Assembly: GCA_012512325.1 (NCBI GenBank)
Contig: JAAZEL010000038.1
Location: 10,518-74,517, forward strand
Direction: 5' to 3'
Source of the DNA: Candidatus Fermentithermobacillaceae bacterium
Lineage (GTDB): Bacteria; Bacillota; Sulfobacillia; Fermentithermobacillales; Fermentithermobacillaceae
DNA: 64,000 bases
Part shown: positions 25,057 to 61,875 of the stretch, in pieces
How the letters are laid out: the number at the start of each line of letters is the position of its first letter
How positions within the stretch are numbered: the stretch's first letter is position 1
The notes under the pieces: generated by a model
Database searches by the model: none
Told to the model about the DNA's origin: nothing
The model's input: only the letters and a program-made list of their open reading frames with translations
Made by a program: the position numbers and the translations under genes

Positions 25057-26421
25057 CTACCTGTCAGAACCTCCCTTGTTATCGGCCCCGTCCCCATCTT
25101 CTCCGCCCTTACCTTCTTCGTCCTTACCTTCTCCGTCCCTACCTTCTCCGTCCTTATCTGCCTTGCCCTTAATCAGGTTCTTTATGAACCTGAGCAGGGG
25201 GCCTTCTGAGGTGGAACCGGCCATAGGCTTGTCGTCAGGCTCGGGCACAGGGATAATGCCCAACTCCTCACCGGCTTCCCGGCGCACTTCCACCCTACGC
25301 AAAGCCTGGCTGCCACGGGAGTCGTGAATCCAAAGGGACACGGGCCCGGATGTACCGGCCAGGGCAGCTTCAAGGGAATTTCTGTCCGCAACGTGGACAT
25401 CGTCCACCAAGCGGATTATGTTGCCGCTCTTCAGCCCCGCCCTTTTTGCAGGGCTGCCTTCGGCCACGTCAAGGAGCAAGACCCCTTCTTGAACCGGGGT
25501 GTAGATGGGCTCCTGCCCGTACTCCTCGCGGAGCCCCGCCCTGATCACTAACTCGTGGCCGATAGGGGCAAACAGGGTAGCCACCCATGCAAAGGGCTGC
25601 CATTTCGACCCGGCAACCGAGAGGATGAGCAGGGCTATGCTGAACAGCATGAGGTTTCTTGAGGTGATCCTTGCCTTGTCCCTGGGAGCCCTGGCTATGG
25701 CAATATCCCCGTATCCCAGGGCAGCTATCAGGGGCATCATGGCGAACACAGGGTGGCCTGGGCCGGGGATGTCAGGCGCCTTAATCAGGGGCCACCAGTC
25801 AGGCAGGTATATCAAATCAGGCACCTGTGACAGATCAGGCACCTTGATCAAGAGCAACACTATCAGAGGGATCGGCCAAAACCGCTGCAAGGCAAAGCCT
25901 CCCACCACGTCCCCGTTCTCATGGGAAAGGTAAAGCGGGGTAGAGCAAGTGTGGCCTGAAAGCAATATGAGAAAAGCTTCCGCAGCGTGAAGACAAGCCA
26001 CAAGCGCCATGAGTGCGGGCACGTTTACCTTGGGCCATCCGAAGATCAAGTGGCTTAGGGCGGCCAATCCGCCTGCGTAGGAAAAACACAAAAGCCTTGG
26101 GCTGAACAGGTACAAGAGCAGGGCAACAGGCATCAGATAGGCGATACCGCTGTCTGTCACCGACACGCCGATAAACACCATCAACAAGCTGGCCAAGAGT
26201 CCCCCGAGCAAACCCAGGCCAACCGCGCTGAGGGTCTGCCAAAAAGCCTTATTTGATGCCGTACCGTACAGCCTTTCCTCAGTGCGTTGAACCCTGGCGT
26301 ACTGGCTTGCAATCAGCACCAGCACCACAAGGTAAAGCACATCCACTGCCGGGTTTGAGAATATGCCCGGATACGCACGCAAAACCGACTTAACCAGTTG
26401 AAACAGAGGGCCCACACCCAT
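25057..26421 (-). CDS. polytopic membrane protein with C-terminal PDZ domain (MinJ-like)
   Basis: 454 aa. Multiple TM helices, then a PDZ domain (GVLLLDVAEGSPAKRAGLKSGNIIRLVDD), then a Gly/Asp/Lys-rich repeat tail. Position between uvrBA and ctp mirrors B. subtilis minJ. Confidence 0.55.
   Translation of the reverse strand: MGVGPLFQLVKSVLRAYPGIFSNPAVDVLYLVVLVLIASQYARVQRTEERLYGTASNKAFWQTLSAVGLGLLGGLLASLLMVFIGVSVTDSGIAYLMPVALLLYLFSPRLLCFSYAGGLAALSHLIFGWPKVNVPALMALVACLHAAEAFLILLSGHTCSTPLYLSHENGDVVGGFALQRFWPIPLIVLLLIKVPDLSQVPDLIYLPDWWPLIKAPDIPGPGHPVFAMMPLIAALGYGDIAIARAPRDKARITSRNLMLFSIALLILSVAGSKWQPFAWVATLFAPIGHELVIRAGLREEYGQEPIYTPVQEGVLLLDVAEGSPAKRAGLKSGNIIRLVDDVHVADRNSLEAALAGTSGPVSLWIHDSRGSQALRRVEVRREAGEELGIIPVPEPDDKPMAGSTSEGPLLRFIKNLIKGKADKDGEGRDGEGKDEEGKGGEDGDGADNKGGSDR
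25086..25170. repeat. about 18-nt tandem repeats (cttaccttctccgtccyta, about 4 copies) encoding a Gly/Glu/Asp/Lys-rich C-terminal tail
   Basis: Direct inspection of 25080..25180. The translation is KGKADKDGEGRDGEGKDEEGKGGEDGDG. Confidence 0.6.
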
Positions 26422-26490
26422 TGCCCCTTTCGCCCAATAGCCTGGATGAAAACGTTGTCAAGATCTTGTCAGGACATTGTCCCGACGTTT

Positions 26491-27615
26491 TTAGGACGTT
26501 CCTGAAACCTCCGCCCTGGCCAGTTCAATCGCTTTGGCCAGTTGTTCCTCGTCCCCTTCTACAAGTATGTCCGGCTCAAGCCCCTTGCCGTTAATTGAGC
26601 GCCCGTTAGGAGTAAAATACTCTGCTATAGTCACTTTTACAACCGAACCGTCCTTGAGCTTATACGAATTTTGCACCAGGCCTTTGCCGAAAGTCGGGGT
26701 GCCTATCAGGGTCCCAACTTCGTAATCCTGTATGGCCCCTGCCAGGATCTCGGAAGCGCTGGCCGTCCCTCCGTTTACCAAGACGAACAAGGGTTTGTCA
26801 ATCCCCGGGCCCTTGGACGTATAACTGGTTTCCTCAAAGGACTTGCCCTTGACGGTTACCACGTTGCCTTCGGGGACGAACATCCTTGCGATGTCAATGC
26901 ACCTGTCCAGCAGCCCGCCTCCGTTATAGCGCAGGTCCAGGATGATTGCTTTGGCACCTTGACGTTGGAGTTCTTGCATGGCTTCCGCCATGGCAAGGGC
27001 GGATCCCTCGTTGAACGTTATGAGTTCGATGTACCCTATCCCTTCTTCTTTCATCTCATACTCCACTGCAGCGATGGTTATGTCTTCCCTTACTATGGTT
27101 ACGTCAAACGTGTCTCCGTCCCGGTATATGGTGAGCGTCACCTCGGTGCCTGCAGGCCCCCTGATCAGGGCTGCAGCCTCGTCACCGCTGGACACCGGCT
27201 TGCCGTCAACTTTGATTATGAAATCGTTGACCCTGAGCCCCGCAGCTTCAGCAGGCGCACCCTTCATAGGAGATACGATGCATACCCCGCCGTCCTTATC
27301 GGTGATGGTTACCCCTATCCCTGAATACTCGCCGCTTGTGCGTATATAAAACTCGTACCATTCTTCCTGGGTCATGTACACGGAATACGGATCCCCCAAA
27401 GCGGCCACCACGCCCCTGGCGGCGCCTTCCAAGATCTCTGCCTGGTCAAAGTCTTTGTAGTAGGTGTTTTCCAGCAAGCGGATAATGCCCAGAACCTTAC
27501 CCACAGGCGTGAATTGAACCAGAGCATATGCGCCCAGGCCGGCGGTTACCAGAACCGCTAGGAGAGCAGCGACTATGCATAACCTTACGGCCTTTGACCT
27601 GGAAATCGTATCCAC
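26491..27615 (-). CDS. ctpA: carboxy-terminal processing protease (S41, Ctp family)
   Basis: 374 aa. N-terminal TM helix, a PDZ domain, and S41 catalytic-region sequence. Confidence 0.85.
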   Translation of the reverse strand: MDTISRSKAVRLCIVAALLAVLVTAGLGAYALVQFTPVGKVLGIIRLLENTYYKDFDQAEILEGAARGVVAALGDPYSVYMTQEEWYEFYIRTSGEYSGIGVTITDKDGGVCIVSPMKGAPAEAAGLRVNDFIIKVDGKPVSSGDEAAALIRGPAGTEVTLTIYRDGDTFDVTIVREDITIAAVEYEMKEEGIGYIELITFNEGSALAMAEAMQELQRQGAKAIILDLRYNGGGLLDRCIDIARMFVPEGNVVTVKGKSFEETSYTSKGPGIDKPLFVLVNGGTASASEILAGAIQDYEVGTLIGTPTFGKGLVQNSYKLKDGSVVKVTIAEYFTPNGRSINGKGLEPDILVEGDEEQLAKAIELARAEVSGTS

Positions 27616-27788
27616 TCACATCACCGTCTTTCTGTCCCAAGATACACACATGGGTAGTAAACAACAAACCGGTCTGAAACTACCTGACTAAGTTACATTC
27701 AGTCTAGCACAACCGCGCCCCTCCCTCTACAGCTGACAAGCTGTGCCAAGCCGGGAGTAAGCTGCAAAGGGATTCAAGAGAGCTCCCT

Positions 27789-27832
27789 GTAAAACAAAGC
27801 AGGCTGCCCGGTGGTTCCCAGCACCGGACAGC
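27789..27832 (-). terminator. probable intrinsic terminator after the M23 peptidase gene
   Basis: Imperfect hairpin ggctgcccggtg...caccggacagcc (about 27803..27832). On the minus strand it is followed by TGCTTTGTTTT. Confidence 0.5.
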
Positions 27833-27861
27833 CCCGAATTGTCTTGCGTGTTATGTATATC

Positions 27862-29019
27862 CTAAAATTGAACCCATTTCCTGGGATCATCGGTGGCCCC
27901 GTTGATGCGCACCTCAAAGTGGAGGTGGGGACCTGTGGACACGCCTGTGCTCCCTACAAGGGCGATTGTCTGCCCCCTGGTCACCACATCGCCCTTACTC
28001 ACAAGCAGTTTTGAACAGTGCGCGTAAAGGGTGGATATGCCTCCCCCGTGGTCTATGACCACATAATACCCGTAGCCCGAATCCCTGGTGGCTACGATGA
28101 CAGTGCCATCCTCTGCGGCCTTAATCGGAACACCGCTGTCCACCGCTATGTCAATGCCCGAGTGGAACCTGTAGTACTGCAGTATGGGATGCCACCTGTT
28201 GCCGTATTCAGAGCTCACCCAGCCGCCTTGGACAGGACGAATCATTGACAACCCTTCTTTTTTCTCCCGCTGGTGGCCCTGGGCTTGAAGCTCCTTGATC
28301 AGCTGCTCTAAGGCCTTGGATTCACGCTCGATTTGATCCAGGGCCTCTTCCAGTTTCTTGCGGTCCTGTTGGAGTTGGGCCAAGTACCTCTCCCTGTCGG
28401 CGCTGCGGGAAGCCACTTGAGCCCGTTTTTGCTCCTGCTGGTTCTTTGCCAGGGTAAGAGCTTGTACATCTTGTTCAAGCAGTTCTTTCTTGTCGGCGAG
28501 CTCCTGCCTTAATAGCTTGTACTCTTCTATGAGGCGGGAATCTTCCTGGGCGATTTCACGGAGGTAATACAGTTTGGCCATGAACTCAGACACGCTCTTT
28601 GAGTCCAGGAGCACTTCAAGGTAGGAAGTCCGTCCCGCCTTATACATGCAAACCAATCTGTCGCAAAACAGTTCCCTTTTTTCTTCGGTTTTCTTTTCCA
28701 CTTCGGCGATTTCTTGTTCCGTCTCTTCTATCCTGTCGGAAAGATACTGTATCCTGGCCAGCAGGTAGTCAAGTTCCCGCTGGGCAAGCTCAAGCTCCAG
28801 TTCAAGCTGTTCAAGTTCTTTCATTACGGAGCTCTCAGAACGCTTCTTGGCTTCGATTTGCTTCTTGGTTTCCTCAATCTCTTTCTGCATTTGCTCGAGC
28901 TCGGAGTATTTTTCATCCAGTATGCCCGCCCTGGCAATCGGGACGGCCTTGACCGCCTGGATTGCCAACACCAGGGCCAAGCAAAGCACGCACAGATAAG
29001 CGGTTCTTCCTCTCCTCAT
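27862..29019 (-). CDS. coiled-coil M23 (LytM) peptidoglycan hydrolase/activator, EnvC-like, partner of FtsEX
   Basis: 385 aa. Signal peptide, a long coiled coil, and a C-terminal M23 domain with HxxxD...HLHFE. Immediately downstream of ftsEX. Confidence 0.8.
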   Translation of the reverse strand: MRRGRTAYLCVLCLALVLAIQAVKAVPIARAGILDEKYSELEQMQKEIEETKKQIEAKKRSESSVMKELEQLELELELAQRELDYLLARIQYLSDRIEETEQEIAEVEKKTEEKRELFCDRLVCMYKAGRTSYLEVLLDSKSVSEFMAKLYYLREIAQEDSRLIEEYKLLRQELADKKELLEQDVQALTLAKNQQEQKRAQVASRSADRERYLAQLQQDRKKLEEALDQIERESKALEQLIKELQAQGHQREKKEGLSMIRPVQGGWVSSEYGNRWHPILQYYRFHSGIDIAVDSGVPIKAAEDGTVIVATRDSGYGYYVVIDHGGGISTLYAHCSKLLVSKGDVVTRGQTIALVGSTGVSTGPHLHFEVRINGATDDPRKWVQF

Positions 29020-29041
29020 GCCTATGTACCTCCGGAAAAGC

Positions 29042-29926
29042 CTAGACTCTCAGGTGCCGCCTCACTGAAAAAGCAGAGCCTGTGAGGCCAACTATCACAC
29101 CCGTCAAAGCCATGATCCCGAACATCTCCTGTATGGACTGGGTTTCCAGGCCCACTATGGGCATAAACGGTATGAACTCGGCGATTTTTCCCGCTACCCA
29201 GTTGTAGACCCCTACGGCAAACCCAGTGCCCAAGGCGCTGCCCAGAAGCCCGAGGAATACCCCTTCAAGCAGAAAGGGCATCAGAACGAAACCGTCAGTA
29301 GCCCCCACCAGTTTCATTATCCCGATCTCCTGCCTCCGGGCGTCAATCGCAAGCCTAATAGAGTTGGCTATGACCATCACTGCCACAATGCCTACAATCA
29401 ACATGCCGCCCAAGGACAGGTATTGCACGGCCTTGCCGATTTGTGCCAGCCGTTCTGAGACTTCTTCCTGATAGATCACATCGTTTATAACGTCGATACT
29501 CTTGAGCGCCTCGACCACGACAGGTATTTGCTCCGCACCTGTCGTATTTACCCTCACGCTCGGCGGGAGAGGACTATCCTCTTCCAGGGAATCCAGCACA
29601 GACGCTTTGTCTTTGAACATATCCTTGAGTTCTTCCAGAGCTGCTTCTTTGCTGACGAACTTCACTTCACTTACGCCGGGCATGTCCCGTATCTGGGTTA
29701 CGGCAGCCGCCAGCTCCGCATCTGAGGCTTCCTTGTTCATGTAAGCTTGGATCTCCATCTGGCTTTCAGCCATCTGGTACATATAGCCCAGGTTGATGGA
29801 GACCAGGAAGCTTGTCCCAAGCAGAAAAAGGGCGAAACCTGTTGTGAGGGAAGAAAGGAACGACGACAGCTTGTTCCGCCATAGGCTGCGGAAAGTTTGA
29901 GAAAACATATATCCTATGAGCCTCAA
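29042..29926 (-). CDS. ftsX: cell division permease-like protein FtsX
   Basis: 294 aa. Four-TM FtsX topology with a periplasmic loop. The ftsE stop overlaps its start. Confidence 0.85.
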   Translation of the reverse strand: MRLIGYMFSQTFRSLWRNKLSSFLSSLTTGFALFLLGTSFLVSINLGYMYQMAESQMEIQAYMNKEASDAELAAAVTQIRDMPGVSEVKFVSKEAALEELKDMFKDKASVLDSLEEDSPLPPSVRVNTTGAEQIPVVVEALKSIDVINDVIYQEEVSERLAQIGKAVQYLSLGGMLIVGIVAVMVIANSIRLAIDARRQEIGIMKLVGATDGFVLMPFLLEGVFLGLLGSALGTGFAVGVYNWVAGKIAEFIPFMPIVGLETQSIQEMFGIMALTGVIVGLTGSAFSVRRHLRV

Positions 29927-30615
29927 CAGCTATACGCCCCTCTTCTTTCATCCCGCACAAGGGTACCGTCCCTGAGTTCCACAACCCGCTTTCTAAGGTT
30001 ATTGACGATATCCTGGGCATGGGTGGCTACAACCACCGTTGTCCCGTAAAGGTTTGCACGTTCCAGCAAGCTGAAGATTTCCATGGATGTCTTAGGATCC
30101 AAGTTGCCGGTAGGCTCGTCCGCAAGTAAGATATCAGGGTTCCTCACAAGCGCCCTGGCAATAGCTATCCTTTGCTGCTCGCCCCCTGAAAGCTCGTTTG
30201 GGAATGCCTCGCGCCTGTCCAAGAGCCCAACCAGGTTGAGTGCCTGGCTTACCCTCCGGTTGATCTCCCGCCTGGAAGTGCCTGTAACCTCAAGGGCGAA
30301 CGATACGTTTTCCCACGCATTCTTGTGTTCCAGGAGTTTGAAATCCTGAAACACTACGCCGATCCTCCGCCTGAAGTACGGGACTTCGCGTCTCCGCATT
30401 TTCGCGAGGTCTTTCCCCAAGACGAACACCTGGCCCCCGGAAGGCGTCTCTTCCCTGTATATCATCTTGATAAGGGTGGACTTGCCTGCGCCGCTTGCGC
30501 CCACCGCAAAAACAAATTCGCCCTTATCTATATGCAAAGACACTCCGTTAAGGGCCTTAACACTGCCGTTATATACCTTGGAAACGTTCCTAAAGCTGAT
30601 CAACGAATATGTCAC
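29923..30615 (-). CDS. ftsE: cell division ATP-binding protein FtsE
   Basis: 230 aa. ABC ATPase Walker A (GASGAGKST), signature LSGGEQQR, and Walker B. Confidence 0.9.
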   Translation of the reverse strand: MTYSLISFRNVSKVYNGSVKALNGVSLHIDKGEFVFAVGASGAGKSTLIKMIYREETPSGGQVFVLGKDLAKMRRREVPYFRRRIGVVFQDFKLLEHKNAWENVSFALEVTGTSRREINRRVSQALNLVGLLDRREAFPNELSGGEQQRIAIARALVRNPDILLADEPTGNLDPKTSMEIFSLLERANLYGTTVVVATHAQDIVNNLRKRVVELRDGTLVRDERRGAYSC

Positions 30616-30737: not shown

Positions 30738-30834
30738 CTCTTGTTCCTCAAATCTCCCGCTTACCGGCTCTCGCTTGCAAGCTCCCGTTTGCGTCTCCCG
30801 TGTCCAAGCCTCCGTCTACTGTCTGCCGCTTACG
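30738..30834. repeat. 13-14-nt tandem repeat (TCTCCCGYTTRCN-like), about 6-7 copies, in the ftsE upstream region, running into the tkt-C 3' end
   Basis: Direct inspection: aatctcccgcttacc/ggctctcgcttgcaa/gctcccgtttgcg/tctcccgtgtccaa/gcctccgtctact/gtctgccgcttacg. Confidence 0.55.
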
Positions 30835-39387: not shown

Positions 39388-39477
39388 GTGCTCATCCTGG
39401 CCATGCTAATGCTGGCAGTGTTCATCCCAGCCCTGTTCACATTAGCCGCGGTCATCTTGGCCGGGCTCAGCTAATTC
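39388..39477. repeat. three imperfect 30-nt direct repeats in the secA 5' region, overlapping the DUF5317 gene stop
   Basis: Units are gtgctcatcctggccatgctaatgctggca, gtgttcatcccagccctgttcacattagcc and gcggtcatcttggccgggctcagctaattc, about 60% pairwise identity. Both strands carry short repeat-encoded ORFs. Confidence 0.6.
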
Positions 39478-43932: not shown

Positions 43933-44267
43933 CCCGCATACCTCCAACAAGAGTATTTGCCTAATAGTTATTCCCTATGAAGGCAACGGACACCTCCAAG
44001 AGCGTTCCACTGGAAATACACCTTACATACTAGTTTTCGACATAATAAAACCCAAGTCAATACGGATAATCGACACATATTGACAATCCACAGGAATATC
44101 CCCAACCGGAAACCCAGATTTAACTGGTTATCAACACAATTGTCCACATTATCCACAGGAAGCAACTCACACTATCCACAGGAGGCAACTCGCTCCGGTG
44201 TGCTGACTCTTAGCCGGTAATCTCCGAAATCTCGACCGATACTGTGTTGGCAACTCTCCCCGGTGTG

Positions 44268-44296
44268 TTGACTCTTAGTCCCGGGAATGCTATAGT
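44268..44296 (+). promoter_or_regulatory. sigma-A-type promoter for the cold-shock gene (TTGACT-17-TATAGT)
   Basis: Near-consensus -35 and -10 boxes with 17-nt spacing, about 75 nt upstream of the csp ATG. The 5' UTR contains the hairpin gacgacgcggcggggacccgtcgtc. A degenerate duplicate of the -35 module lies about 68 nt upstream. Confidence 0.6.
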
Positions 44297-44628: not shown

Positions 44629-44650
44629 CGCACTTGCTCATGACTCTGGT

Positions 44651-44735
44651 TTGTTTCGCTCTTGTTTTTTGCTCTTGTCTATAGCTCTTGTCTTTTGCTC
44701 TCTTGCTTATGGCTCTTGCTTATTGTTCTTGTTTG
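44651..44735. repeat. about 13-nt tandem repeat (GCTCTTGTYTWTN), about 6-7 copies, in the convergent csp/fliT intergenic region
   Basis: tcgctcttgtttttt gctcttgtctata gctcttgtctttt gctctcttgcttatg gctcttgcttatt gttcttgtttgg. Confidence 0.6.
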
Positions 44736-47024: not shown

Positions 47025-47267
47025 TCAGTCTCCGCTGGGCTTACCAACCAAGTCGTCCAGAACATCCAACACAGGGTCCTTGGCCTCCATCATTTCCCTG
47101 GTCACTTCAACCTCAACTTCTTCCCGCAAAACCTTGGTGCCCAGGGGTGCCTCTATGCCCAACCGGACCGAAGCCCGTGTCCCCCGGCCCCTTACCTCGA
47201 TTACACGGACAACAACGTCATCGCCGATTAATATGGCCTCACCTACGCGCCTGGACAAAACAAGCAT
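47025..47267 (-). CDS. csrA: carbon storage regulator CsrA
   Basis: 80 aa MLVLSRRVGEAILIGDDVVVRVIEV... Confidence 0.9.
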   Translation of the reverse strand: MLVLSRRVGEAILIGDDVVVRVIEVRGRGTRASVRLGIEAPLGTKVLREEVEVEVTREMMEAKDPVLDVLDDLVGKPSGD

Positions 47268-51392: not shown

Positions 51393-51397
51393 GTGTA

Positions 51398-52252: not shown

Positions 52253-52392
52253 GCCTTACGGGTGTGCCGGCCTTACGGGCGTGTCGTGTCGGGCCCTGCG
52301 GCGGTGCCGGGCCCCCCGGCTGTACCGGCCCCTATGGCTGTGTCGGACCCTGCGGCTGTGCTGGCCCCTACGGCTGTGTCGGACCCACGCAG
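52253..52392. repeat. 18-nt tandem repeat (SCCYNNGGCTGTGYYGGM), about 7 copies, upstream of comFC
   Basis: gccttacgggtgtgccgg / ...gccctgcggcggtgccgg / gccccccggctgtaccgg / cccctatggctgtgtcgg / accctgcggctgtgctgg / cccctacggctgtgtcgg / accc... All six frames stay open across it, which produces the spurious track ORFs. Confidence 0.65.
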
Positions 52393-52718
52393 GAACTCGG
52401 ATTGATGACGAAATCAGCTTCAGCTGAAAGGTGCGACGCGATGACCCCGTCATCGACAAGCTTCCTCACCACTGCGACACATTGATGGCTGCAGCCCCTG
52501 GCATCCACGGCAATCTCAAGGTCAACGCCGGCCAATTGCCACCCGAGCTTCAGGCAACGCACCAGAGGTTCAACAACTTCCTGGAGATCGGGACATCCGG
52601 TTAGGGATACGATGACTCTCACCGGACCAGAAGTAGGCTTCAGCACTGCACCTTCCAGTATTACCAGAATACACCAATAGGAGACGGACAACAAGAGCAG
52701 CTTGTTGACGTCGGCCAA
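52368..52718 (-). CDS. hypothetical Cys-containing small protein (116 aa)
   Basis: ORF only. Hydrophobic N-terminus. Cys in TGCPD...RC...GCSHQC. No family recognised, and it is not ComFB-like. Confidence 0.4.
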   Translation of the reverse strand: MADVNKLLLLSVSYWCILVILEGAVLKPTSGPVRVIVSLTGCPDLQEVVEPLVRCLKLGWQLAGVDLEIAVDARGCSHQCVAVVRKLVDDGVIASHLSAEADFVINPSSCVGPTQP

Positions 52719-53986: not shown

Positions 53987-54072
53987 AGCCAGGCACACCT
54001 CCACGGGGAGTAATGTCCGAATCTAACCAGGCTACAGGCTGGAGTGTTTAAATCATCTTAGCACTGGCTGAA

Positions 54073-54078
54073 ATTATA
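54073..54078 (-). promoter_or_regulatory. candidate -10 box (TATAAT) for metK
   Basis: Minus-strand gacTATAATttc lies about 90 nt upstream of the metK start. No convincing -35 box. No S-box (SAM-I) consensus in the about 75-nt leader. Confidence 0.3.
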
Positions 54079-54079
54079 G

Positions 54080-54706
54080 TCAAACGCCCAAGGCAAACAC
54101 AAAGACGGCAGCCGCTACCTCCCGGCCTGCTACGAATGCCTTTCCCCGTGCCCTGCATACGTTCATGCGCAAAGGTTCGACCTCCACTTCAGCGCGCAGG
54201 GTGTCACCGGGCTTCACCGGCTGCTTGAACCGGGCGTTTTCAATCGCAGCCAGATAGGCCGGCTTGCCCCTGCGGCCCGGTTCGGACAGGACGGCCAAAG
54301 CAGCGGTCTGCGCCATCATCTCCAGGGTAATCACGCCGGGGAACACAGGCTCCTGGGGGAAATGCCCCCGGAAGAGCACATGATCTCTGGGGACATCGTA
54401 TTCAGCCACAGCCCATCGGCCCTGCTGTATGCTTATTGCGCGGGTCACAAACAGAAAGGGCGGCCGGTGCGGGAGGATGTCCGTGATAGGGGTAAGGCTT
54501 TCGCATCCGTTAGCCAGGTCAGGAGGCTTCGTACTATCGTGGCACGGATGACTCGTGGTATCCCGGCATGGAGGGTTCGCCTTATCGTCGCACGGATGGT
54601 TCGTGCCGTCCCGGCATCGATGGTTCGTGTTATCTTTTCGAGGAGGGTTGGCATTATCGTGGAATGGAAGGTTCATATTATCACGGCATCGGGCTTTCCT
54701 GTCCAT
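54080..54706 (-). CDS. fabZ: 3-hydroxyacyl-[ACP] dehydratase FabZ, possibly with a repeat-containing N-terminal extension
   Basis: The C-terminal about 145 aa are FabZ (ILPHRPPFLFV...HFPQEPVFPGVITLEMMAQT...). No in-frame ATG directly precedes the hot-dog domain. The nearest credible start is the ATG at 54706 (MDRKARCRDN..., GGGAG 9 nt upstream), which gives about 60 aa of octapeptide repeats. The track ORF to 54982 overlaps the flgJ-like gene. Confidence 0.65.
   Translation of the reverse strand: MDRKARCRDNMNLPFHDNANPPRKDNTNHRCRDGTNHPCDDKANPPCRDTTSHPCHDSTKPPDLANGCESLTPITDILPHRPPFLFVTRAISIQQGRWAVAEYDVPRDHVLFRGHFPQEPVFPGVITLEMMAQTAALAVLSEPGRRGKPAYLAAIENARFKQPVKPGDTLRAEVEVEPLRMNVCRARGKAFVAGREVAAAVFVFALGV
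54526..54693. repeat. 24-nt tandem repeat, 7 copies (GGTTCGTGNTATCNNGGCANSGAN)
   Basis: Units at 54526, 54550, 54574, 54598, 54622, 54646 and 54670. Spans the fabZ 5' region and the last codons of the flgJ-like gene. On the minus strand it encodes about 7 times an 8-aa T-N-H-P-C-R-D-x unit. Confidence 0.7.
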
Positions 54707-55001
54707 CCTCATCATCTCCCGGCAAGTCGCTGGGAGATGATTTCGACAGTTGGTCATAAAGCACCTTCGCCAGGCCGATTCCTCCTCCTTGGGCCCACAC
54801 CTGTCCCATGGATTGGGACATGAGCACGTCCCATGGCCCAAGGTCCACGCCTGCATTCTTGGCCATGTTGCGCCACAGGATTGTGAGAAACAGGGACTCA
54901 AATTCACGGCAAGCTTCAGCCAGTTTGAGATCTTGCTTATCCTGGTTTGAACCTGCAACTCTGGCCAAGCTGTAAGGTACAATGCTTATGTGGTTGTCCA
55001 T
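54681..55001 (-). CDS. flagellar rod-binding (FlgJ N-terminal-like, Rod_binding domain) protein
   Basis: 106 aa. ...LAEACREFESLFLTILWRNMAKNAG...GGGIGLAKVLYDQL matches the rod-binding domain pattern. Sits downstream of the rod genes. Confidence 0.6.
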   Translation of the reverse strand: MDNHISIVPYSLARVAGSNQDKQDLKLAEACREFESLFLTILWRNMAKNAGVDLGPWDVLMSQSMGQVWAQGGGIGLAKVLYDQLSKSSPSDLPGDDEDGQESPMP

Positions 55002-55189
55002 ATGTCATGTCCCTTCCGCATCGATTCCGTATGAACAATCAGAGCCTCATTACTCATTGTCCGCATCGGCCATCTCATTATCCTCTCATTGTCCTCATCA
55101 GCTATCTCATTACCCTCATCAGTCTCATTGCTTTGTCTTCATAGGCATCTCATGGTCCTGCATTCGATCCCGACGTGGAATTGTGAGGT

Positions 55190-55951: not shown

Positions 55952-55976
55952 TCCGGTCTACCTCCCTCATCTACAC

Positions 55977-56150
55977 GCTTCCTATTTTTGCATGCTGCCT
56001 ATTCCTGCGCGCTTCCTGTTTCAGGCTAGCTTCCTATTTTTGCACGCTTCCCGTTTCCTGCTAGCTTCCTATTCTTGCACGCTTCCCGTTTCCTGCTAGC
56101 TTCCTATTCTTGCATGCTTCCTGGTTCTGCACGCTTCCTGTTCCTGCCGG
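55977..56150. repeat. about 36-nt tandem repeat (gcttcctattcttgcacgcttcccgtttcctgctag), about 4-5 copies, upstream of flgG
   Basis: Copies at about 55977 (degenerate), 56029, 56065 and 56101. The minus (mRNA-sense) strand is rich in GGAAG/AGGAA motifs. Confidence 0.65.
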
Positions 56151-56206
56151 TTCCCGCCCCTACATGCTCCATATTCCTGCACGACTCCTGGAAGGCTGCT
56201 CCGCAA

Positions 56207-56944
56207 CTACACTCTTCCAACCCGGTTCACAGCTTGCTCCAGGGTCTCATCGTGGGAACGCAATGCCCGCTGGGCAGCTTCGTATACCCTCATTGATGTA
56301 ATGAGGGCTACCATTTCAGACACAGGGTCCACCGTGGACTTCTCAAGCACCCCCACCAGCACCCTGGGAGACTCAATCTGGGTGGCGTATCCTCCGATCA
56401 GCCTAAGAAGGCCGTTACCCTCTTTCTCCAACTCATAGTCTCCTGAAAACGAGAAAACCGACAGGCTGTCCACCGTTTCATCGTCAGCGACTACGCTCCC
56501 GTCGTCGGAAATGCTGTAGACCTTGCCTGCCTCAAGGGCAATGGGGCCGCTTGTGCCCAACACCCTGTATCCGCCCACTGTGAGGCAACCGTCCATGTCC
56601 CTGAGGTTGCCCATACGCGTGTACCTGGTGCCTGCAGGAGTCTCAACGGCCAAGTAGGTACCCTGGGGCAAGGCAATGTCCAAAGGCCTGTGGGTGGTCT
56701 CAAGCCCGCCTACAAGGTCCATGGTGGCAATATCGTGAAGTACCGTTCCGCTGGAAAAACCTCCGATGGCTGTGTGGGACAGGCTCTCGAACCTGTACAT
56801 CAGCGCATCGTGGAAGCTCTGAAACACCACTTTGTCCTTTTGATACGCTACGGTGTCCACATTGGCCAGGTTGTTGGCGATCACTTCCTGGTTGAGCACC
56901 TGAGCCCTCATGGCCGTAGCGGCAGACAGAATGCCTTTGATCAA
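56207..56944 (-). CDS. flgF: flagellar basal-body rod protein FlgF (FlhO-like)
   Basis: 245 aa. ...AQVLNQEVIANNLANVDTVAYQKDK... and C-terminal ...DPVSEMVALITSMRVYEAAQRAL. Confidence 0.8.
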   Translation of the reverse strand: MIKGILSAATAMRAQVLNQEVIANNLANVDTVAYQKDKVVFQSFHDALMYRFESLSHTAIGGFSSGTVLHDIATMDLVGGLETTHRPLDIALPQGTYLAVETPAGTRYTRMGNLRDMDGCLTVGGYRVLGTSGPIALEAGKVYSISDDGSVVADDETVDSLSVFSFSGDYELEKEGNGLLRLIGGYATQIESPRVLVGVLEKSTVDPVSEMVALITSMRVYEAAQRALRSHDETLEQAVNRVGRV

Positions 56945-57049
56945 GTAAAAATCCCCCTTGAAGTTTTATCGGCCAAGGGCTCAAACGTATTAGGTGTCTG
57001 AGGAGGAAATGGTTTATTGCAAACAGACCCAGCACCCAATGGTCAGAGT

Positions 57050-57230
57050 CAGACCATCCATCGTGGCGATCTGGATATTTCGGGCAAGGTAGTCGTTACC
57101 CTGCAAAGGCCTTCGCAGCTCAGGCCATACATCGTGGCAATCTGAACATTTTCGGGCAAGGTAGTCGTGACTCTACGGTAGCCTTCGCAACTTAGACCAT
57201 ACATCGCGGTAATGCGGTAATCCGGTCATT
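57050..57230. repeat. about 71-nt direct repeat, about 2.4 copies (atcgtggcRatctgRayatttYcgggcaaggtagtcgt...ccttcgca...cat)
   Basis: Copy starts at about 57060, 57131 and 57203 (partial), read from the sequence. Confidence 0.65.
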
Positions 57231-57431
57231 TCCGGACCGGTATAGGACCGGGTCTGTGGGGGCTAATCTGAGACCGGTTTTGGTACTGCACCGGCCAAGA
57301 GGCTACCGGATGTTGCAGGAGACCGGCCAATCCCAGACCAGGTTCCGACCAAATCCTGACACTCCGGTCGATCTCAAACCAGCTTGGCTCTCGAGTTGGT
57401 CAGAAGCAGGCCAGCCGCGCCGTAGAATGGC

Positions 57432-57950
57432 CAATTCCAGACCAGATCGGGGACCGGATCCGAGCACTCTGGCCAATCTCTGACCAGTCCGACTCCCGAA
57501 GTGGTCAGAATGGAACCAGATGTCGCCGTGATCTGGTCAATTCGAGACCAGACCATTGACCGGATCCGAGCACTCTGGCCAATTTCTGACCAGTCCGACT
57601 TCCGAAGTGGTCAGAATGAAGCCAGATGTCGCGGTGATCTGGTCAATTCGAGACCAGACCATCGACCGGATCCGAGCACTCCGGCCAATTTCTGACCAGT
57701 CCGACTTCCGAAGTGGTCAGAACGGAACCAAAAGGCGGGGCAACCTGGTCAATTCCTGGCCGGTCCCCGGTCAAACCGGAGAACTCTGGTCAATCTGAGA
57801 CCAGGCTCATCAGTTGAAGTGGTCAGATACAGACCAGGTTTCGCGCAAAGCCGGTCAATTCATAGCCAGACCCAAGACCGAAACCCAAGATCCTGGCCAA
57901 TTCCTAACCGGTTCCGATGCAGAAGTGGTCAAATCGAAGCCAGGCGAGGT
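57432..57950. repeat. about 96-106-nt tandem repeat, 3 near-identical copies (57432..57725), then degenerate copies to about 57950. Recurring words: ctggtcaattc, ggccaattt, gaagtggtcagaa
   Basis: The anchor ggatccgagcactc recurs at about 57466, 57562 and 57668. ccagatgtcgcSgtgatctggtcaattcgagaccagacc recurs at about 57516 and 57622. No ORF longer than 80 codons on either strand. Confidence 0.7.
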
Positions 57951-58982
57951 CTAACCGGTGAGACTTTCGATGTGCTCCCTGTAGAGGTTAAAGTTCTCCA
58001 AGGCCGCGATGGTACCTCTTGCCACACACGAAATGGGGTCTTCAGCCACATGGACCGGCAAGCCGGTTGCATCCCTTATAAGCTGGGTTATGCCTTTCAG
58101 AAGGGCTCCGCCTCCTGTAAGCACGATGCCTTTATCGATGATGTCGCCCAACAGCTCAGGTGGGGTGCGGTCCAATACCTGCCTTATGGCGTGACAGATC
58201 AAATCGAGGGGTTCCCTCAGGGCGACCCTTATGTCTGCGGAACTCACTGACACGCTCCTGGGAAGTCCTGTAATGGCGTCCCTGCCCCTGACCTCATACC
58301 TGGTTTCTTCGTTTGCTTCAGGGTGGGCCGACCCTACTGCTATCTTTACTTCCTCCGCAGTGGATTCGCCAATGAAAAGGGTGTATTCCCTGCGCATATG
58401 TCTTATGATGGCCTCGTCGAACGCATTGCCGCCCACGCGGGTGGAGGCGCCTGTGACTATCCCGTTGAGGGAAAGCACGGCGATGTCAGTGGTTCCTCCT
58501 CCGATGTCCACAACCATATGGCCTTTAGGAGCAGTGATGTCTATACCCGCCCCCAGAGCAGCGGCGAGAGGTTCTTCAATGAGGTATACCTTCTTACCTC
58601 CTGCTGCCAGCCCTGCTTGGAGCACCGCCCTCCGTTCCACTGAAGTAACCGCAGCAGGTACACATAAGAGGAGTGTGGGCTTAAACACCAAGGTTGAACC
58701 GAGGCTCTTGCGCAAGAAGTACCTGAGCATTATCTCAGTGACCTCGAAATCATTGATCACGCCCTCCACCAGAGGGCTTACGGTCACAATGCTTCCAGGC
58801 GTCCTGCCGACCATTCTCCTGGCCTCTGTGCCTACCGCCAAAACCTCTTTGGTTTCGACATGCCTGGCTATCACTGAAGGCTCTCTTAGGACGATGCCTT
58901 TGCCTGATACGAACACCAAGACGGAGGAAGTTCCGAGGTCAATTCCTACATTCCGGCCACCTATCACGCTAAGCCACCCCAC
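57951..58982 (-). CDS. mbl: rod shape-determining actin homologue, MreB/Mbl family
   Basis: 343 aa. ...NVGIDLGTSSVLVF..., DIGGGTTD and other actin-fold motifs. Adjacent to spoIIID as mbl is in B. subtilis. Confidence 0.9.
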   Translation of the reverse strand: MGWLSVIGGRNVGIDLGTSSVLVFVSGKGIVLREPSVIARHVETKEVLAVGTEARRMVGRTPGSIVTVSPLVEGVINDFEVTEIMLRYFLRKSLGSTLVFKPTLLLCVPAAVTSVERRAVLQAGLAAGGKKVYLIEEPLAAALGAGIDITAPKGHMVVDIGGGTTDIAVLSLNGIVTGASTRVGGNAFDEAIIRHMRREYTLFIGESTAEEVKIAVGSAHPEANEETRYEVRGRDAITGLPRSVSVSSADIRVALREPLDLICHAIRQVLDRTPPELLGDIIDKGIVLTGGGALLKGITQLIRDATGLPVHVAEDPISCVARGTIAALENFNLYREHIESLTG

Positions 58983-59069
58983 TGGATTACTTAGCAGTTA
59001 GTTCTACAGATGGTGCCAGGATCCTTCAAAGAGTGGCAATTCTGTCCAGGAAACGGGGTTCACGTTGGA

Positions 59070-59321
59070 TCAGGTGGCTTTTTGGTACTTCCTTCTGGTA
59101 GCTTCTCCCCCTCTGATGTGCCTCTCGGCCTTATTCACATCTAATATTTCACGCACAAGTTTTGCCAGCTGCGGGCGGATTTTGGGCAACCGTTCTGTAA
59201 CATCCTTGTGCACAGTACTCTTGGAAACCCCGAAGATGCGGGCGGCTTCACGGACCGTCGAGTGTGTATCCCTGATGTATTCGCCAATCTCGATGGCGCG
59301 CTTCCATATCACTTCATTCAT
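59070..59321 (-). CDS. spoIIID: sporulation transcriptional regulator SpoIIID
   Basis: 83 aa. ...IGEYIRDTHSTVREAARIFGVSKSTVHKDVTERLPKI...RGGEATRRKY, near-identical in pattern to B. subtilis SpoIIID. Confidence 0.9.
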   Translation of the reverse strand: MNEVIWKRAIEIGEYIRDTHSTVREAARIFGVSKSTVHKDVTERLPKIRPQLAKLVREILDVNKAERHIRGGEATRRKYQKAT

Positions 59322-59402
59322 ACAAGCGTCCCCCTTAGTGGGATGTTACGGTAATATATATGCACGTGCGGGGAATTCATGAACCAAGAGCCCGCTCACC
59401 GG

Positions 59403-60302
59403 CTAACTGCCGTCGCTTGTGAATGCCGCAGGGTCCACTGCTTCGCCGTCCTCGAACAGTTCAAAACGGAGGATGTCCCCTTCGGTCCTTCCGATGGTTT
59501 CTCCCCTGGACACCTGTTGCCCGGGGACCGGGCCCGGAGCGGACACTCCCGCATAACGAGTCTCATACCTGTCTCCGTGGTCGATTACGATCACCAGGCC
59601 GACACCCTCGTCCCGGTAAACCCGCTTGATCACCCCTGACCCGGCAGCCTTCACCTCTGCCCCGGGTTCGGCTGAGATGGCCACTCCCGGGTAGTAACGC
59701 CAGTCGCCCAGTTCTTCTGAGTAGCCCCAGCCGGGCCGTTTTATAATCTGCCCTGAAACCGGCATTATGATTCCGTACGGATCGAAAGCTGGGACGGCCT
59801 GGTTGTCCTCACCCTGGCTGTCCCGTGAATCCTGGTCGGGGGCCCTCGCGCTGCCGTGGGTCACCTGGTCCGCATGCCGGTCTGTAAGTTCCTGCCTGCT
59901 CTCAGTGGTACCGGTTGCAGTACCCACGGATTCCGTTCCGAACCCGTCCGTTCCCGATCCGTCTTTCATGTCTTCGTTGCCGGGCAGCTGGATTCGACCG
60001 TCGAGCACCTCACCTGGGTGGGGGTCATAGTCCTGTGAACTCCCTGTGTCGTGCGCGTTCCACCCGGAAGCCGGCGCCTCGAGGAAACTTGCCCGCAGCC
60101 CGAGGAAAATTCCTAAACTGAACAGGGCGATGCAACCCGCGACGATCAAAAGCCCTTTGAAGGCGCTCCTGAAGCGCTTTGACCTCTTAAGTCGCCTGAG
60201 GGTGTTATAGTCACTTCCCAGTGTGAAGTACTTGAGTCTTGATTTTCCCCTCAACCCCTCGGAAGTCCGGTTGTCCTGACCCCTGATGTCATCCGCCTGC
60301 AT
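59403..60302 (-). CDS. membrane-anchored M23/LytM-domain protein (SpoIIQ-like by position)
   Basis: Start at the ATG at 60302 (MQADDIR) with RBS GGAGGTG. TM helix GLLIVAGCIALFSLGIFLGL, a low-complexity linker, and a C-terminal LytM domain (...VIDHGDRYETRYAG...). Confidence 0.65.
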   Translation of the reverse strand: MQADDIRGQDNRTSEGLRGKSRLKYFTLGSDYNTLRRLKRSKRFRSAFKGLLIVAGCIALFSLGIFLGLRASFLEAPASGWNAHDTGSSQDYDPHPGEVLDGRIQLPGNEDMKDGSGTDGFGTESVGTATGTTESRQELTDRHADQVTHGSARAPDQDSRDSQGEDNQAVPAFDPYGIIMPVSGQIIKRPGWGYSEELGDWRYYPGVAISAEPGAEVKAAGSGVIKRVYRDEGVGLVIVIDHGDRYETRYAGVSAPGPVPGQQVSRGETIGRTEGDILRFELFEDGEAVDPAAFTSDGS

Positions 60303-60541
60303 AACAACACCTCCGGCGGATAGTATTGACATAATTTGGAGGAAACATGCAAACACGCGTCGGGCGTCGGGATGACCGGAAGGACGCGATTCGCCCGCAG
60401 GTGGCGGCCGCCCCTAGACAAAAGGCATGCTGCAATGGTTTCATTTATTCTCTGAAGAGCAGGTTCTATGGCAACCAGAGCAATTACTGGATAGGACCGC
60501 ATAGAGATAGGTCATTCCACGACTATGACTCTGGATAACAG

Positions 60542-61528
60542 TTATTCTTCGAAGATATGCGACACCTGAGTACCGGGGTAGTAGTTGGCAAGAATCTCGA
60601 GGAAGTCCATGCCTGCCCTGGCTGCGCCGTCAGCCCCGTACTGGCACAGGCCTACTCCGTGGCCGTAGCCAGAAACCTGGAACACGATGTTCTCACCCTG
60701 TACTGACCAGGTGAACTTGGTGGACTTGAGGCCCAAGGCTGACCTAAATTCCAGCCCCCTTACGGTCTTGCCGTCTACTGAAATTTGCTTCACCCTGCCT
60801 GTGGGAGACAAGGAGGTGACGGCAATGACCCCTTTCTGCGACACCTTTGAGGCTGGGACGGCGATTCCAAGGCTCCCCATGGAACTGGATATCTGAGTCG
60901 CGGACAACACGACTTTGGAGATCTTGTAGTGAGGTGACGAAGCGCAGTAATTGCAGGTCACGCTTTGTAGATAATCCACATCCTTACCCCAAACATCCTT
61001 TGCGGCTTCGGTGGCTCCGCCGCAGGTAGAATGGTACACCGACTCGGCAGGCAGCCCCTTGTAAGTGAGAATCAGCCCCTGGGTTTCTCTCACCGCCTTT
61101 TCTATCTTGGGCCAGTTCAGCCACCATCCGATAGTCCCCCAGCGTTCTTTGAGCACATGTTCGGGATTCCACGCCTGGTCCTTGGCAGGGTTCGATGTAA
61201 CATCGGCTTTTCCGGGCATAGACGGTGTGCCGCCAAAGATTTGCATCTTGCGTAAGGCATAGGTCCTGGCAATCACGGCCTGGGCCTTGAGAGCCTCTGG
61301 GTGGAAAGATGCGGGCATTTCAGAAGCTACCACATGCTTCACGTACTCTTCCAAGTCCATGCTTATCACTTTGTCTTCAGGTTCGTAGTATACGTCTATC
61401 CTGAGGAACGGATAACCGGCGGCCGGCGTTTGAGGCATCTTGGGCTGTTCGACGGGGCCAGGTGCACCGCTTGACAGCCCTGCCAGCAAGCCAAAAAGGA
61501 ATAACAAGAAAAAGAAGGCCTTTTTCAT
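60542..61528 (-). CDS. spoIID: stage II sporulation protein D (SpoIID/LytB domain)
   Basis: 328 aa. Signal peptide, then SpoIID-domain sequence ...YHSTCGGATEAAKDVWG... Confidence 0.85.
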   Translation of the reverse strand: MKKAFFFLLFLFGLLAGLSSGAPGPVEQPKMPQTPAAGYPFLRIDVYYEPEDKVISMDLEEYVKHVVASEMPASFHPEALKAQAVIARTYALRKMQIFGGTPSMPGKADVTSNPAKDQAWNPEHVLKERWGTIGWWLNWPKIEKAVRETQGLILTYKGLPAESVYHSTCGGATEAAKDVWGKDVDYLQSVTCNYCASSPHYKISKVVLSATQISSSMGSLGIAVPASKVSQKGVIAVTSLSPTGRVKQISVDGKTVRGLEFRSALGLKSTKFTWSVQGENIVFQVSGYGHGVGLCQYGADGAARAGMDFLEILANYYPGTQVSHIFEE

Positions 61529-61756
61529 GGTGACTGCCTCCGAAGACCCTTTGTTGATTAATATTGGGAAGCGGAGGCATTTATTCTTGTCGAAGGGGCA
61601 TGATATCGAGATGTGTCTGGACGACTGTCAATATCGGGCTGGCTACACTGGCTACACATAGCCGGCTGCACATGGCCAGAGCACATGGCTGGCTACACTT
61701 GGGTAACGGAGCACCTACATGTGAACACATCAGGTGACGGTAAAGCGTCGCGAAAC

Positions 61757-61835
61757 ACCACATCTTCACTGACGCGACAGGCCGACGGTCACTATCTTCA
61801 TTGACACGCAACACCACATCCTCATTGACGCAGGC
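61757..61835. repeat. about 29-nt direct repeat, 3 copies (CACCACATCYTCAYTGACGCR), in the spoIID-murA intergenic region
   Basis: caccacatcttcactgacgcgacagg / cactatcttcattgacacgcaacac / caccacatcctcattgacgcagg. ggctggctacac also occurs twice, at about 61638 and 61688. Confidence 0.55.
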
Positions 61836-61875
61836 TTGGCAGTCGGGTTGGCCGTGGGGCACCGGAGCATTAGCA

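Follow-up and report, generated by a model that had tools for sequence, protein, structure and literature searches.

The tandem arrays described here are probably independent bacterial minisatellites (VNTR type) that arose on the branch of a single species by expansion and decay, with no part in switching. The host is one uncultured anaerobic-digester species of Ca. Fermentithermobacillaceae, whose sister species are known as MAGs. Within the window (the whole 64-kb stretch analyzed), approximately a dozen independent loci were crowded within a 37-kb stretch of conserved core genes. The genes concerned were flagellar, sporulation, and housekeeping genes, and the arrays lay between them or at their tips. 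Together, the arrays added approximately 2 kb of DNA and lengthened the distances between cistrons.

Tandem Repeats Finder (TRF) reported 10 arrays (merged) with a score of at least 50 in the window. Dinucleotide shuffles (n = 30) contained 0.33 such arrays on average (maximum 1), and relatives contained 0.9 per 64 kb (571 kb scanned), an excess of approximately 30-times over the shuffles and 11-times over the relatives. Array coverage was 1306 bp in the window and 12 bp in the shuffles. No array with a score of at least 50 was found by TRF in a 50-kb flagellar region of E. coli. The high array density claimed in the preliminary description was therefore borne out, including in the TRF comparison with relatives. 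The arrays and one associated element are as follows:

25088–25156, minus strand: coding 15-nt array (30-nt higher-order) in the gene for a PDZ-domain protein (25057–26421) (TRF, translation).
30745–30815, minus strand: degenerate 13- to 14-nt array (ACGGGAG-N6, approximately 5 copies) between the tktC stop and the ftsE leader (lag test).
39389–39463, minus strand: degenerate 15-nt array (30-nt higher-order), five copies of GGCCAGGATGAnCAC (lag test).
44139–44278, minus strand: two local duplications (23 nt, two copies; 65 nt, two copies) in the divergent csp/hpf spacer (TRF; lag 65, z = 13.9).
44644–44734, minus strand: 13- to 14-nt array rich in ACAAGAGC (6.7 copies, 76% matches) in the fliT 3′ region (TRF).
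52286–52386, minus strand: 18-nt array (36-nt higher-order) upstream of comF, formed by duplication of the orf116 3′ end (TRF, unit display).
54528–54634, minus strand: coding 24-nt array (48-nt higher-order), in frame in the N-terminal extension of FabZ (TRF).
55053–55159, minus strand: 21/32-nt array (AATGAGA and GATGAGGAC motifs) between the flgG stop and a FlgJ-like ORF (TRF; lag 32, z = 16.4).
55970–56156, minus strand: 17.5/35/70-nt array (GCAGGAAnAGGAAGCnT, approximately 10 half-units) between flgF and flgG (TRF).
56966–56993, minus strand: conserved promoter-like element CTAAT-N15/16-GCCGATAA with RBS, upstream of flgF (alignment with relatives).
57049–57213, minus strand: 72-nt array (2.3 copies) upstream of the flgF promoter-like element (TRF).
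57222–57945, minus strand: 106-nt higher-order array of approximately 7 units, from the mbl stop codon onward (TRF, motif scan, identity matrix).
61639–61702, minus strand: 14-nt array (CCATGTGTAGCCAG, approximately 4 copies) in the murA-spoIID spacer (TRF).
61754–61840, minus strand: 28-nt array of three units (GCGTCAATGAAGATGTGGTGTT-like) just 3′ of the murA stop (lag 56, z = 11.1; unit display).

Array units ranged from 13 to 106 nt and were degenerate (63–92% matches, TRF), and for most arrays TRF reported period doubling. All ten positions named in the preliminary description showed tandem periodicity, but several of the periods given there were wrong and three arrays had been overlooked; 55053–55159 (21/32 nt) and 44139–44278 (23 nt and 65 nt, two copies each) were among the omissions. 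According to TRF, the period was 15/30 nt rather than 18 nt at 25.1 kb, and 17/35/70 nt rather than 36 nt at 56.0 kb. At 61.8 kb there were three 28-nt units rather than 29-nt ones, plus the separate 14-nt array nearby. The arrays at 30.7 and 39.4 kb were periodic by the lag test (lag 14 at 30754–30792 and lag 15 at 39389–39463, each P ≤ 0.005 against 200 shuffles) but weak, with TRF scores below 30. Unit lengths were not mostly divisible by 3, as had been proposed: approximately 5 to 6 of 14 base periods were multiples of 3, compared with 4.7 expected.

Each locus carried its own unit. An all-against-window blastn-short search found no cross-similarity between array units, and the units were found neither elsewhere in the window nor in viral contigs or plasmids. 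No Rfam match was obtained with the gathering threshold, nor with a cutoff relaxed to E ≤ 1.

The intergenic arrays lay between operon genes in the orientation of the operon (gene map, spacer table), just after the upstream stop codon and ahead of conserved promoter/RBS sequence. The placement in 5′ regions or gene termini given earlier was correct in part, with two coding tails and one duplicated gene 3′ end; the remaining arrays were intergenic and directly 3′ of a stop codon. The arrays were missing from the corresponding syntenic loci, both in sister species and in more distant relatives. All nine array-bearing spacers compared exceeded the sister-species length by roughly the length of the array (approximately 2.0 kb summed), whereas three array-free spacers were equal in length (257 vs. 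257/272 nt, 246 vs. 274/257 nt, and 159 vs. 159/161 nt). The spacer sequence kept in relatives was always the 3′, promoter/RBS-proximal part. Relatives without arrays and with correspondingly shorter spacers support the lineage-specific propensity for repeat expansion that had been suggested for this region.

The same pattern was found locus by locus. The 30745–30815 array adjoined the tktC stop codon on its 3′ side and preceded the conserved ftsE leader, in a spacer of 212 nt; the spacers of sister species (115/107 nt) aligned with its 3′ part only. The 39389–39463 array lay directly 3′ of the stop of a DUF5317 gene and upstream of the secA RBS; this spacer was 139 nt long, compared with 59/51 nt in sister species, and the common part was only the RBS-proximal GTGAAAAGGGGATA. 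The csp/hpf spacer had approximately 90 nt more than the sister spacers and was otherwise alignable, and its 23-nt duplication copied a DnaA-box-like TGTGGATAA element (DnaA-box scan). The fliT 3′ array was located upstream of a conserved bidirectional terminator hairpin in a 253-nt spacer, and in sister species (50/47 nt) the terminator alone remained. The murA-spoIID spacer was 347 nt long, compared with 72 to 110 nt in relatives, and only its 3′ 55 nt were common. An apparent 126-nt deletion in this spacer in assembly L084 was a scaffold gap containing NN and not a real indel.

The units of the two coding arrays (15 and 24 nt) preserved the reading frame. The first encoded a C-terminal low-complexity tail (...KDGEG RDGEG KDEEG KGGED...) on a protein whose Pfam match was PDZ at residues 304–362 only. 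The second encoded an 8-aa repeat (N-x-P-C-R/D-D-x-T) in the 211-aa FabZ product, in which the FabA domain begins at residue 81. The fabZ start codons (ATGATG..ATG near 54715) overlapped the end of the FlgJ-like ORF, likewise in relatives, the reading frame was compared with that of 6 relatives, and the stretch from the array to the FabA domain contained no start codon in frame. The seed of the FabZ array was visible as an ancestral NPGCRDxT segment. Upstream of comF, the array read in the orf116 frame as GPTQP* GPAQPQ GPTQP* GPVQPG..., the TAG stop having been copied too, and the orf116-comF spacer was 148 nt long, compared with 35 to 81 nt in relatives. Each array was shown to have been amplified locally from its own seed, the seeds including the orf116 3′ end with its stop codon and the FabZ segment.

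The mbl-flgF spacer was 1006 nt long (71–135 nt in sister species and 59–135 nt across all relatives), the flgF-flgG spacer 255 nt (12–126 nt), and the spacer between flgG and the FlgJ-like rod-binding ORF (54681–55001, downstream of the 55053–55159 array) 188 nt (20–49 nt). TRF called the 106-nt array at 57428–57827 (106/212 nt), and the motif scan and identity matrix widened it to approximately 57222–57945. Its unit consisted of three hairpin sub-units of approximately 35 nt, which were imperfect palindromes; central units were 81–92% identical and edge units 52–73%. The hairpin motif had 12 matches in the 82 kb examined, all within the mbl-flgF spacer. The flgF promoter-like element, which we take to resemble the sigma-D/sigma-28 consensus, was common to the window and to L011, L012, L013/L057, and L014; everything upstream of it differed, and it delimited the inserted repeats on their 3′ side. 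Three other lineages (L011, L014, and L023) also had small, independent arrays between flgF and flgG.

Variation between strains was examined in contigs from independent assemblies that were 99.7–99.9% identical. Clean indels among them comprised whole units only (+35 nt and −106 nt). L001 and L002 had one extra perfect 35-nt unit between flgF and flgG, the sole indel in 18.8 kb. L005 had exactly one 106-nt unit fewer in the mbl-flgF array, in a short-read assembly in which repeat collapse is possible. These two arrays, differing by exactly one unit between near-identical strains, also support the lineage-specific propensity, and the youngest two arrays (35-nt flgF-flgG and 106-nt mbl-flgF) were shown to undergo continuing gains and losses of entire units in populations of today. 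Ten of the 12 arrays were monomorphic in all clean assemblies; no indel was found at 25088–25156 in 6 other assemblies or at 44644–44734 in 5 clean assemblies. Smaller differences were a single 2-nt indel in L005 at 55053–55159 and seven clustered substitutions in L010 at 57049–57213. Between L001 and the window, 4 of 11 substitutions were inside arrays, which cover approximately 8% of the aligned length. A perfect 24-nt duplication (2.4 copies) was observed 9 kb beyond the window, which suggests that repeat formation is still under way.

Under the minisatellite explanation, the arrays would have grown by replication slippage or unequal exchange. They would then have diverged and been amplified again as higher-order units (15 to 30, 18 to 36, 24 to 48, 17 to 35 to 70, and 35 to 106 nt), and would finally have decayed from their edges. 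Selection would act only as a filter, sparing arrays at the few sites without constraint, either immediately behind a stop codon and before the conserved promoter/RBS of the following gene, or in-frame within disordered ends of proteins.

A switching function is unnecessary to explain the array pattern. The preliminary description had proposed contingency-locus-like variability in the expression of flagellar, competence, and division genes. Under this proposal, changes in copy number would act through spacing or the length of UTRs and make expression vary within the population. The two polymorphic arrays lie on either side of flgF, arrays occupy leaders or intercistronic regions of sigma-D- and sporulation-type genes, and other lineages also have small, independent flgF-flgG arrays. 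However, this proposal is unlikely and found no support in the repeats themselves: units were long (13–106 nt) and degenerate rather than perfect 1- to 7-nt tracts. No array was frame-shifting or lay within a promoter spacer (−35 to −10), the conserved promoter/RBS segments downstream were untouched, most arrays were monomorphic, and relatives manage without them.

It is likewise improbable that some of the arrays function as RNA elements or as binding sites for proteins, with the flgF-flgG GGA array titrating CsrA from within the mRNA or the 106-nt array acting 3′ of mbl as a REP/BIME-like stabilizer or binding platform. The flgF-flgG spacer contained 20 GGA triplets in 255 nt (20–23 GGA motifs), eight of them in [CU]AGGAAG motifs, compared with 0 to 5 GGA triplets in relatives; csrA and fliW were intact 9 kb away, and there is a precedent for CsrA titration by flagellar mRNA (PMC4894983). 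The 106-nt units folded into three hairpins each, with RNA folding far beyond chance (z = −7.3), whereas the flgF-flgG array RNA was weakly structured (z = −1.6). However, the GGA counts were inflated by copying one unit and thus amount to one observation. The motifs of the other arrays were unrelated, which makes a common mutational origin simpler. There was no Rfam match even at E ≤ 1, the hairpin motif was present at no other site examined, and substitutions were enriched, not depleted, in arrays. Because the elements were absent from all relatives, any function would be very young. The narrower proposal, in which rod-gene mRNA carries a young CsrA titration element of variable copy number in the form of the flgF-flgG array, must be considered quite improbable. 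If it were true, flgF-flgG transcription would tune the CsrA-FliW checkpoint on flagellin translation, and Bacillota would have their first sponge-like RNA antagonist of CsrA, here just emerging from a minisatellite.

An origin by insertion of mobile or dispersed repeats (a MITE, REP, or MIRU-like family), instead of amplification in situ, is highly improbable. An intergenic location in operons is shared with MIRUs, and palindromic sub-units of the 106-nt array with REPs, but the arrays had no similarity to one another or to the rest of the window, the hairpin motif was restricted to one spacer, and viral contigs and plasmids gave no matches. Terminal inverted repeats and target duplications were lacking, and two arrays were visibly derived from adjoining gene sequence. 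Assembly artefact can be practically dismissed: metagenome assemblies are error-prone at repeats, and the L084 gap and Ns inside the 106-nt array of L007 are examples, but the arrays were identical base for base in independent NCBI, JGI, ENA, and Logan assemblies, among them contigs 838 kb and 927 kb long.

Several observations run counter to the minisatellite explanation, and the possible repeat collapse behind the −106-nt allele also weighs against it. Strong arrays were present in 8 of 17 spacers (at least 60 nt) at 44–62 kb and in 0 of 17 at 1–43 kb; this clustering of all 8 strong arrays (hypergeometric P ~ 0.001, with the boundary picked post hoc) holds within the 82 kb examined, and it is unpredicted by a uniform genome-wide mutational propensity. 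The recurrent flgF-flgG arrays of L011, L014, and L023 hint that this site is permissive locally or that the feature is under selection. The structure of the 106-nt array, or the GGA-packed 35-nt array, could be functional.

Among known systems, contingency loci (Haemophilus, Neisseria, and Campylobacter) are perfect 1- to 7-nt tracts in ORFs or between −35 and −10 that produce on/off switching. The present arrays share with them repeat-mediated, slippage-driven variation near surface and motility genes, but differ in their 13- to 106-nt degenerate units, located elsewhere than at ORF-shifting or −35/−10 positions. REPs of enterobacteria occupy hundreds of sites per genome. Only the 106-nt array resembles REP/BIME elements (imperfect palindromes of approximately 35 nt in tandem, in a transcribed intergenic region 3′ of a gene), and its motif was confined to one spacer of the 82 kb examined. 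In C. jejuni, flaA mRNA titrates CsrA, and a flagellar mRNA can do so without sRNA antagonists (PMC4894983). The flgF-flgG array is similar to flaA and to CsrB/RsmZ in its dense [CU]AGGAAG/GGA series in a flagellar transcript of a csrA-fliW host; in contrast to CsrB/RsmZ, it does not form an sRNA gene of its own, matches no Rfam family, and is not conserved in relatives. MIRUs (mycobacterial interspersed repetitive units) are tandem 40- to 100-nt units between operon genes, operon-oriented and variable in number, and form one dispersed homologous family of approximately 40 loci. The present arrays are similarly intergenic within operons and in operon orientation, but share no sequence among loci (blastn-short) (for MIRUs, see Supply et al. 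1997 and 2000, listed in PMC2734929). The closest likeness is to the VNTR/minisatellite loci used in MLVA typing, for example, of Bacillus anthracis, Yersinia pestis, and Xanthomonas (general review, PMC3899988): imperfect units of 10 to more than 100 nt, arranged head-to-tail in intergenic regions or in-frame coding tails, with an own unit per locus and whole-unit differences between close strains. Correspondingly, the arrays had tandem units above chance that were locus-specific and formed in situ, with whole-unit variation in 2 of approximately 12. They differ from usual VNTRs in that approximately a dozen loci lie within 37 kb, absent from sister species, with two seen varying.

Short tandem arrays were far more frequent in the window than in shuffled sequence. 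TRF returned 42 rows, which merged into 26 arrays at a score of at least 30 and 10 arrays at a score of at least 50 (1306 bp); the values for 30 dinucleotide-preserving shuffles were 9.6 and 0.33 arrays, respectively (12 bp). All ten positions named in the preliminary description showed tandem periodicity, and several of the unit lengths given there were slightly off. Eight of the ten were strong arrays (measured periods of 15/30, 13, 18/36, 24/48, 17/35/70, 72, 106, and 28 nt), and those at 30.7 and 39.4 kb were too degenerate for TRF and passed the softer lag test (p ≤ 0.005). Three further repeats had been overlooked (55053-55159, 44139-44278, and 61639-61702). Most arrays showed period doubling or tripling by TRF. 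Multiples of three made up 5-6 of the 14 base periods, equal to chance; the idea that unit lengths are mostly divisible by 3 does not hold. Gene calls were transferred to the window from conspecific contigs, and each spacer of at least 60 nt was tested: a strong array was found in 8 of 17 such spacers at 44-62 kb vs. none of 17 at 1-43 kb.

The arrays are not assembly artefacts, since all of them recur in independently assembled contigs with 99.7-99.9% identity to the window. Exact-protein matches came from anaerobic-digester metagenomes and MAGs (e.g., an 838-kb contig of GCA_050952145.1 and a JGI contig of 927 kb). Polymorphism was read from metagenome assemblies, leaving out low-coverage ENA contigs (L004, L034-L037, and L039) with scattered, error-like 1-nt to 3-nt indels. 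Only two clean indels were observed. The flgF-flgG array had one additional perfect 35-nt unit in the GCA_050952145.1 and JGI 3300064082 contigs, and the 106-nt array lacked one unit in one JGI contig, a short-read assembly in which repeat collapse is possible. The 126 nt apparently missing at 61.6 kb from contig L084 correspond to a scaffold gap with NN and were not taken as a deletion. Arrays at 25-53 kb did not vary in clean assemblies. Between the window and the near-identical conspecific contig L001, 4 of 11 substitutions fell inside arrays, which occupy approximately 8% of the aligned length.

The genome was read over 82 kb, that is, the window and approximately 9 kb on either side. No arrays were found in the 8.6 kb ahead of the window start. 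Approximately 9 kb past its end (contig L080, 937-994), a perfect 24-nt duplication (2.4 copies) between a Shine-Dalgarno-like run and the GTG that starts a small ORF for a V-ATPase subunit was identical in three assemblies and was the youngest-looking of all arrays seen. The flanks of GCA_900198705.1 were dropped as a sample of the remaining genome: this record (FZPS01000117.1, 637600 nt; contigs L003, L043, L052, and L082) is not a genome contig; it strings short metagenome contigs together with runs of N between them, and its flanks mix organisms, including the 89%-identical sister species as FZPS01000194.1.

The window was 55% G+C, with nearly all genes on the minus strand, in a conserved Bacillota gene block: uvrCAB, a PDZ protein, ctpB, an M23 peptidase, ftsXE, tkt, prfB, secA, hpf, and csp; then fliT-fliS-fliD-csrA-fliW-flgL-flgK-flgN-flgM, followed by comF, orf116, metK, and fabZ; and finally a FlgJ-like rod-binding ORF, flgG, flgF, mbl, spoIIID, a spoIIQ-like gene, spoIID, murA, and V-ATPase genes. 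Its closest named relatives are Ca. Fermentithermobacillaceae MAGs. Loci in synteny with the window, taken from 21 GTDB species and additional metagenome contigs (571 kb in total), contained 8 arrays with a score of at least 50, or 0.9 per 64 kb. The three closest species had no array of that score across the 20 kb that holds seven arrays in the window, and neither did a 50-kb E. coli segment around the flagellar genes. The metagenome scan recovered relatives and few conspecific contigs, and it found no intermediate lineages. Spacer lengths in the window and its relatives were as follows.

Spacer lengths in the window and in relatives (paired values, two sister species).
mbl-flgF: window 1006 nt; relatives 71-135 nt
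flgF-flgG: window 255 nt; relatives 41-126 nt
flgG-rod-binding ORF: window 188 nt; relatives 20-49 nt
orf116-comF: window 148 nt; relatives 35-81 nt
murA-spoIID: window 347 nt; relatives 72-110 nt
fliT-csp: window 253 nt; relatives 50/47 nt
csp-hpf: window 439 nt; relatives 347/348 nt
DUF5317-secA: window 139 nt; relatives 59/51 nt
tktC-ftsE: window 212 nt; relatives 115/107 nt
hyp213-HD-GYP (array-free control): window 257 nt; relatives 257/272 nt
M23-ctpB (array-free control): window 246 nt; relatives 274/257 nt
secA-prfB (array-free control): window 159 nt; relatives 159/161 nt

In all expanded spacers, the portion that could still be aligned was the 3′ end. For example, the kept sequence before flgF comprised a promoter-like element (CTAAT-N16-GCCGATAA) and the RBS; elsewhere it comprised the hairpin-containing spoIID leader, the secA RBS, the ftsE leader, and the common terminator of fliT and csp. 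Because the spacers are longer and only their 3′ ends align, the arrays are lineage-specific additions, approximately 2 kb in total, to the unconstrained 5′ part of the spacer.

Two arrays were coding. The PDZ protein owes its KDGEG-type C-terminal tail to the 15-nt array, and the 24-nt array forms an in-frame N-terminal extension of FabZ, in which an ancestral NPGCRDxT segment was multiplied (approximately 56 residues added). FabZ (54080-54715, minus strand) appears to be 211 aa long; gene callers give 109 or 225 aa on conspecific contigs. Its start (ATGATG..ATG) overlaps the end of the upstream FlgJ-like ORF (54681-55001; Rod-binding domain at Pfam E = 2e-4) by approximately 35 nt, a layout kept in relatives, and neither a stop codon nor an alternative start was found between this start and the FabA domain. 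The 18-nt array is a duplication of the 3′ end of orf116, TAG stop included. The orf116 gene itself (52368-52718, minus strand) is flanked by metK and comF in all close relatives; it encodes a conserved small protein with a highly variable C-terminus, no Pfam match, and no assigned function. Every remaining array starts immediately 3′ of the preceding gene's stop codon.

The mbl-flgF spacer was repetitive almost throughout, with approximately 7 units of 106 nt, each consisting of three hairpins of approximately 35 nt (RNA fold z = −7.3), followed by a 72-nt array (2.3 copies). Identities in the 106-nt array were 81-92% for central units and 52-73% for edge units. Seven substitutions of the conspecific contig L010 in the 72-nt array showed no signature of gene conversion. 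In the promoter-like sequence of flgF, a substitution at the edge of the −35-like element (56994) recurred in four conspecific contigs. The flgF-flgG array was purine-rich and weakly structured (z = −1.6), with 20 GGA triplets. Three other lineages of the family had small arrays of their own in this spacer (L011, 9932-9981, 11-nt unit; L014, 9948-9976, 15 nt; L023, 9944-9983, 14 nt), so the flgF-flgG spacer is recurrently repeat-prone.

The units showed no similarity between arrays or to other window sequence, viral contigs and plasmids contained nothing matching them, and a dispersed-element test confined the hairpin motif of the 106-nt array to its own spacer. Promoter and terminator consensus counts at 43.9-62 kb did not exceed those of shuffles, with none inside arrays. 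Rfam gave no match in the whole window at the gathering threshold or at 54.0-58.1 kb at E ≤ 1, no SAM riboswitch was found upstream of metK (53987-54079), and ARAGORN found neither tRNA nor tmRNA in the 64 kb. Upstream of spoIID (61529-61585, minus strand), an element of approximately 55 nt, TGCCTCCG-N32-CGGAGGCA, was kept in all relatives; it is predicted to fold into a long-range hairpin and thereby to sequester the Shine-Dalgarno sequence of spoIID. The divergent csp/hpf spacer (44128-44180, plus strand) held a cluster of four DnaA-box-like 9-mers, one of them perfect (TTATCCACA); the cluster was kept in both sister species, and the window species had gained one box by a 23-nt local duplication. 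GC skew gave no replication origin there, so the boxes may mark a promoter under DnaA control or a DnaA-box cluster.

The proposal that the arrays act as contingency loci is not supported: the long units are degenerate, neither reading frames nor promoter geometry is disturbed, and most arrays are invariant. The suggested lineage-specific propensity for repeat expansion is supported, within the 82 kb read, by the low array density and shorter spacers of relatives. The simplest account is a burst of minisatellites, from birth to decay, on the species branch. Minisatellites would have been born, expanded, re-amplified at a higher order, and decayed on this one branch; arrays would have been kept where selection was indifferent, and two loci would still be active. 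The clustering at 44-62 kb and the small flgF-flgG arrays of three other lineages are left unexplained by the burst.

The window offers a clean natural case of intergenic DNA and disordered protein tails arising from nothing in a bacterium: approximately 2 kb of new sequence at approximately 12 sites is datable to one species branch, ancestral states survive in sister species, and two arrays appear to be still in flux. The 35-nt and 106-nt arrays are usable as strain markers for this digester organism, and the arrays account for assembly breaks in these MAGs and for conflicting gene calls, with FabZ given as 109, 225, or 211 aa. A lineage-specific change in slippage control, if that is the cause, is expected to be visible in a complete genome.

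The hairpin array downstream of mbl and the GGA array of flgF-flgG could have been co-opted for function; if either has gained one, it would show the origin of regulatory RNA elements. The hairpin and CsrA-like readings each rest on one amplified unit, neither feature was kept in relatives, and no family-wide conserved CsrA site was found in the flgF-flgG spacer apart from the SD. The csrA-fliW genes lie near this spacer, with csrA at 47025-47267. CsrA titration by mRNA is documented in C. jejuni (PMC4894983). The GGA-rich flgF-flgG array of the window resembles CsrA-binding repeats.
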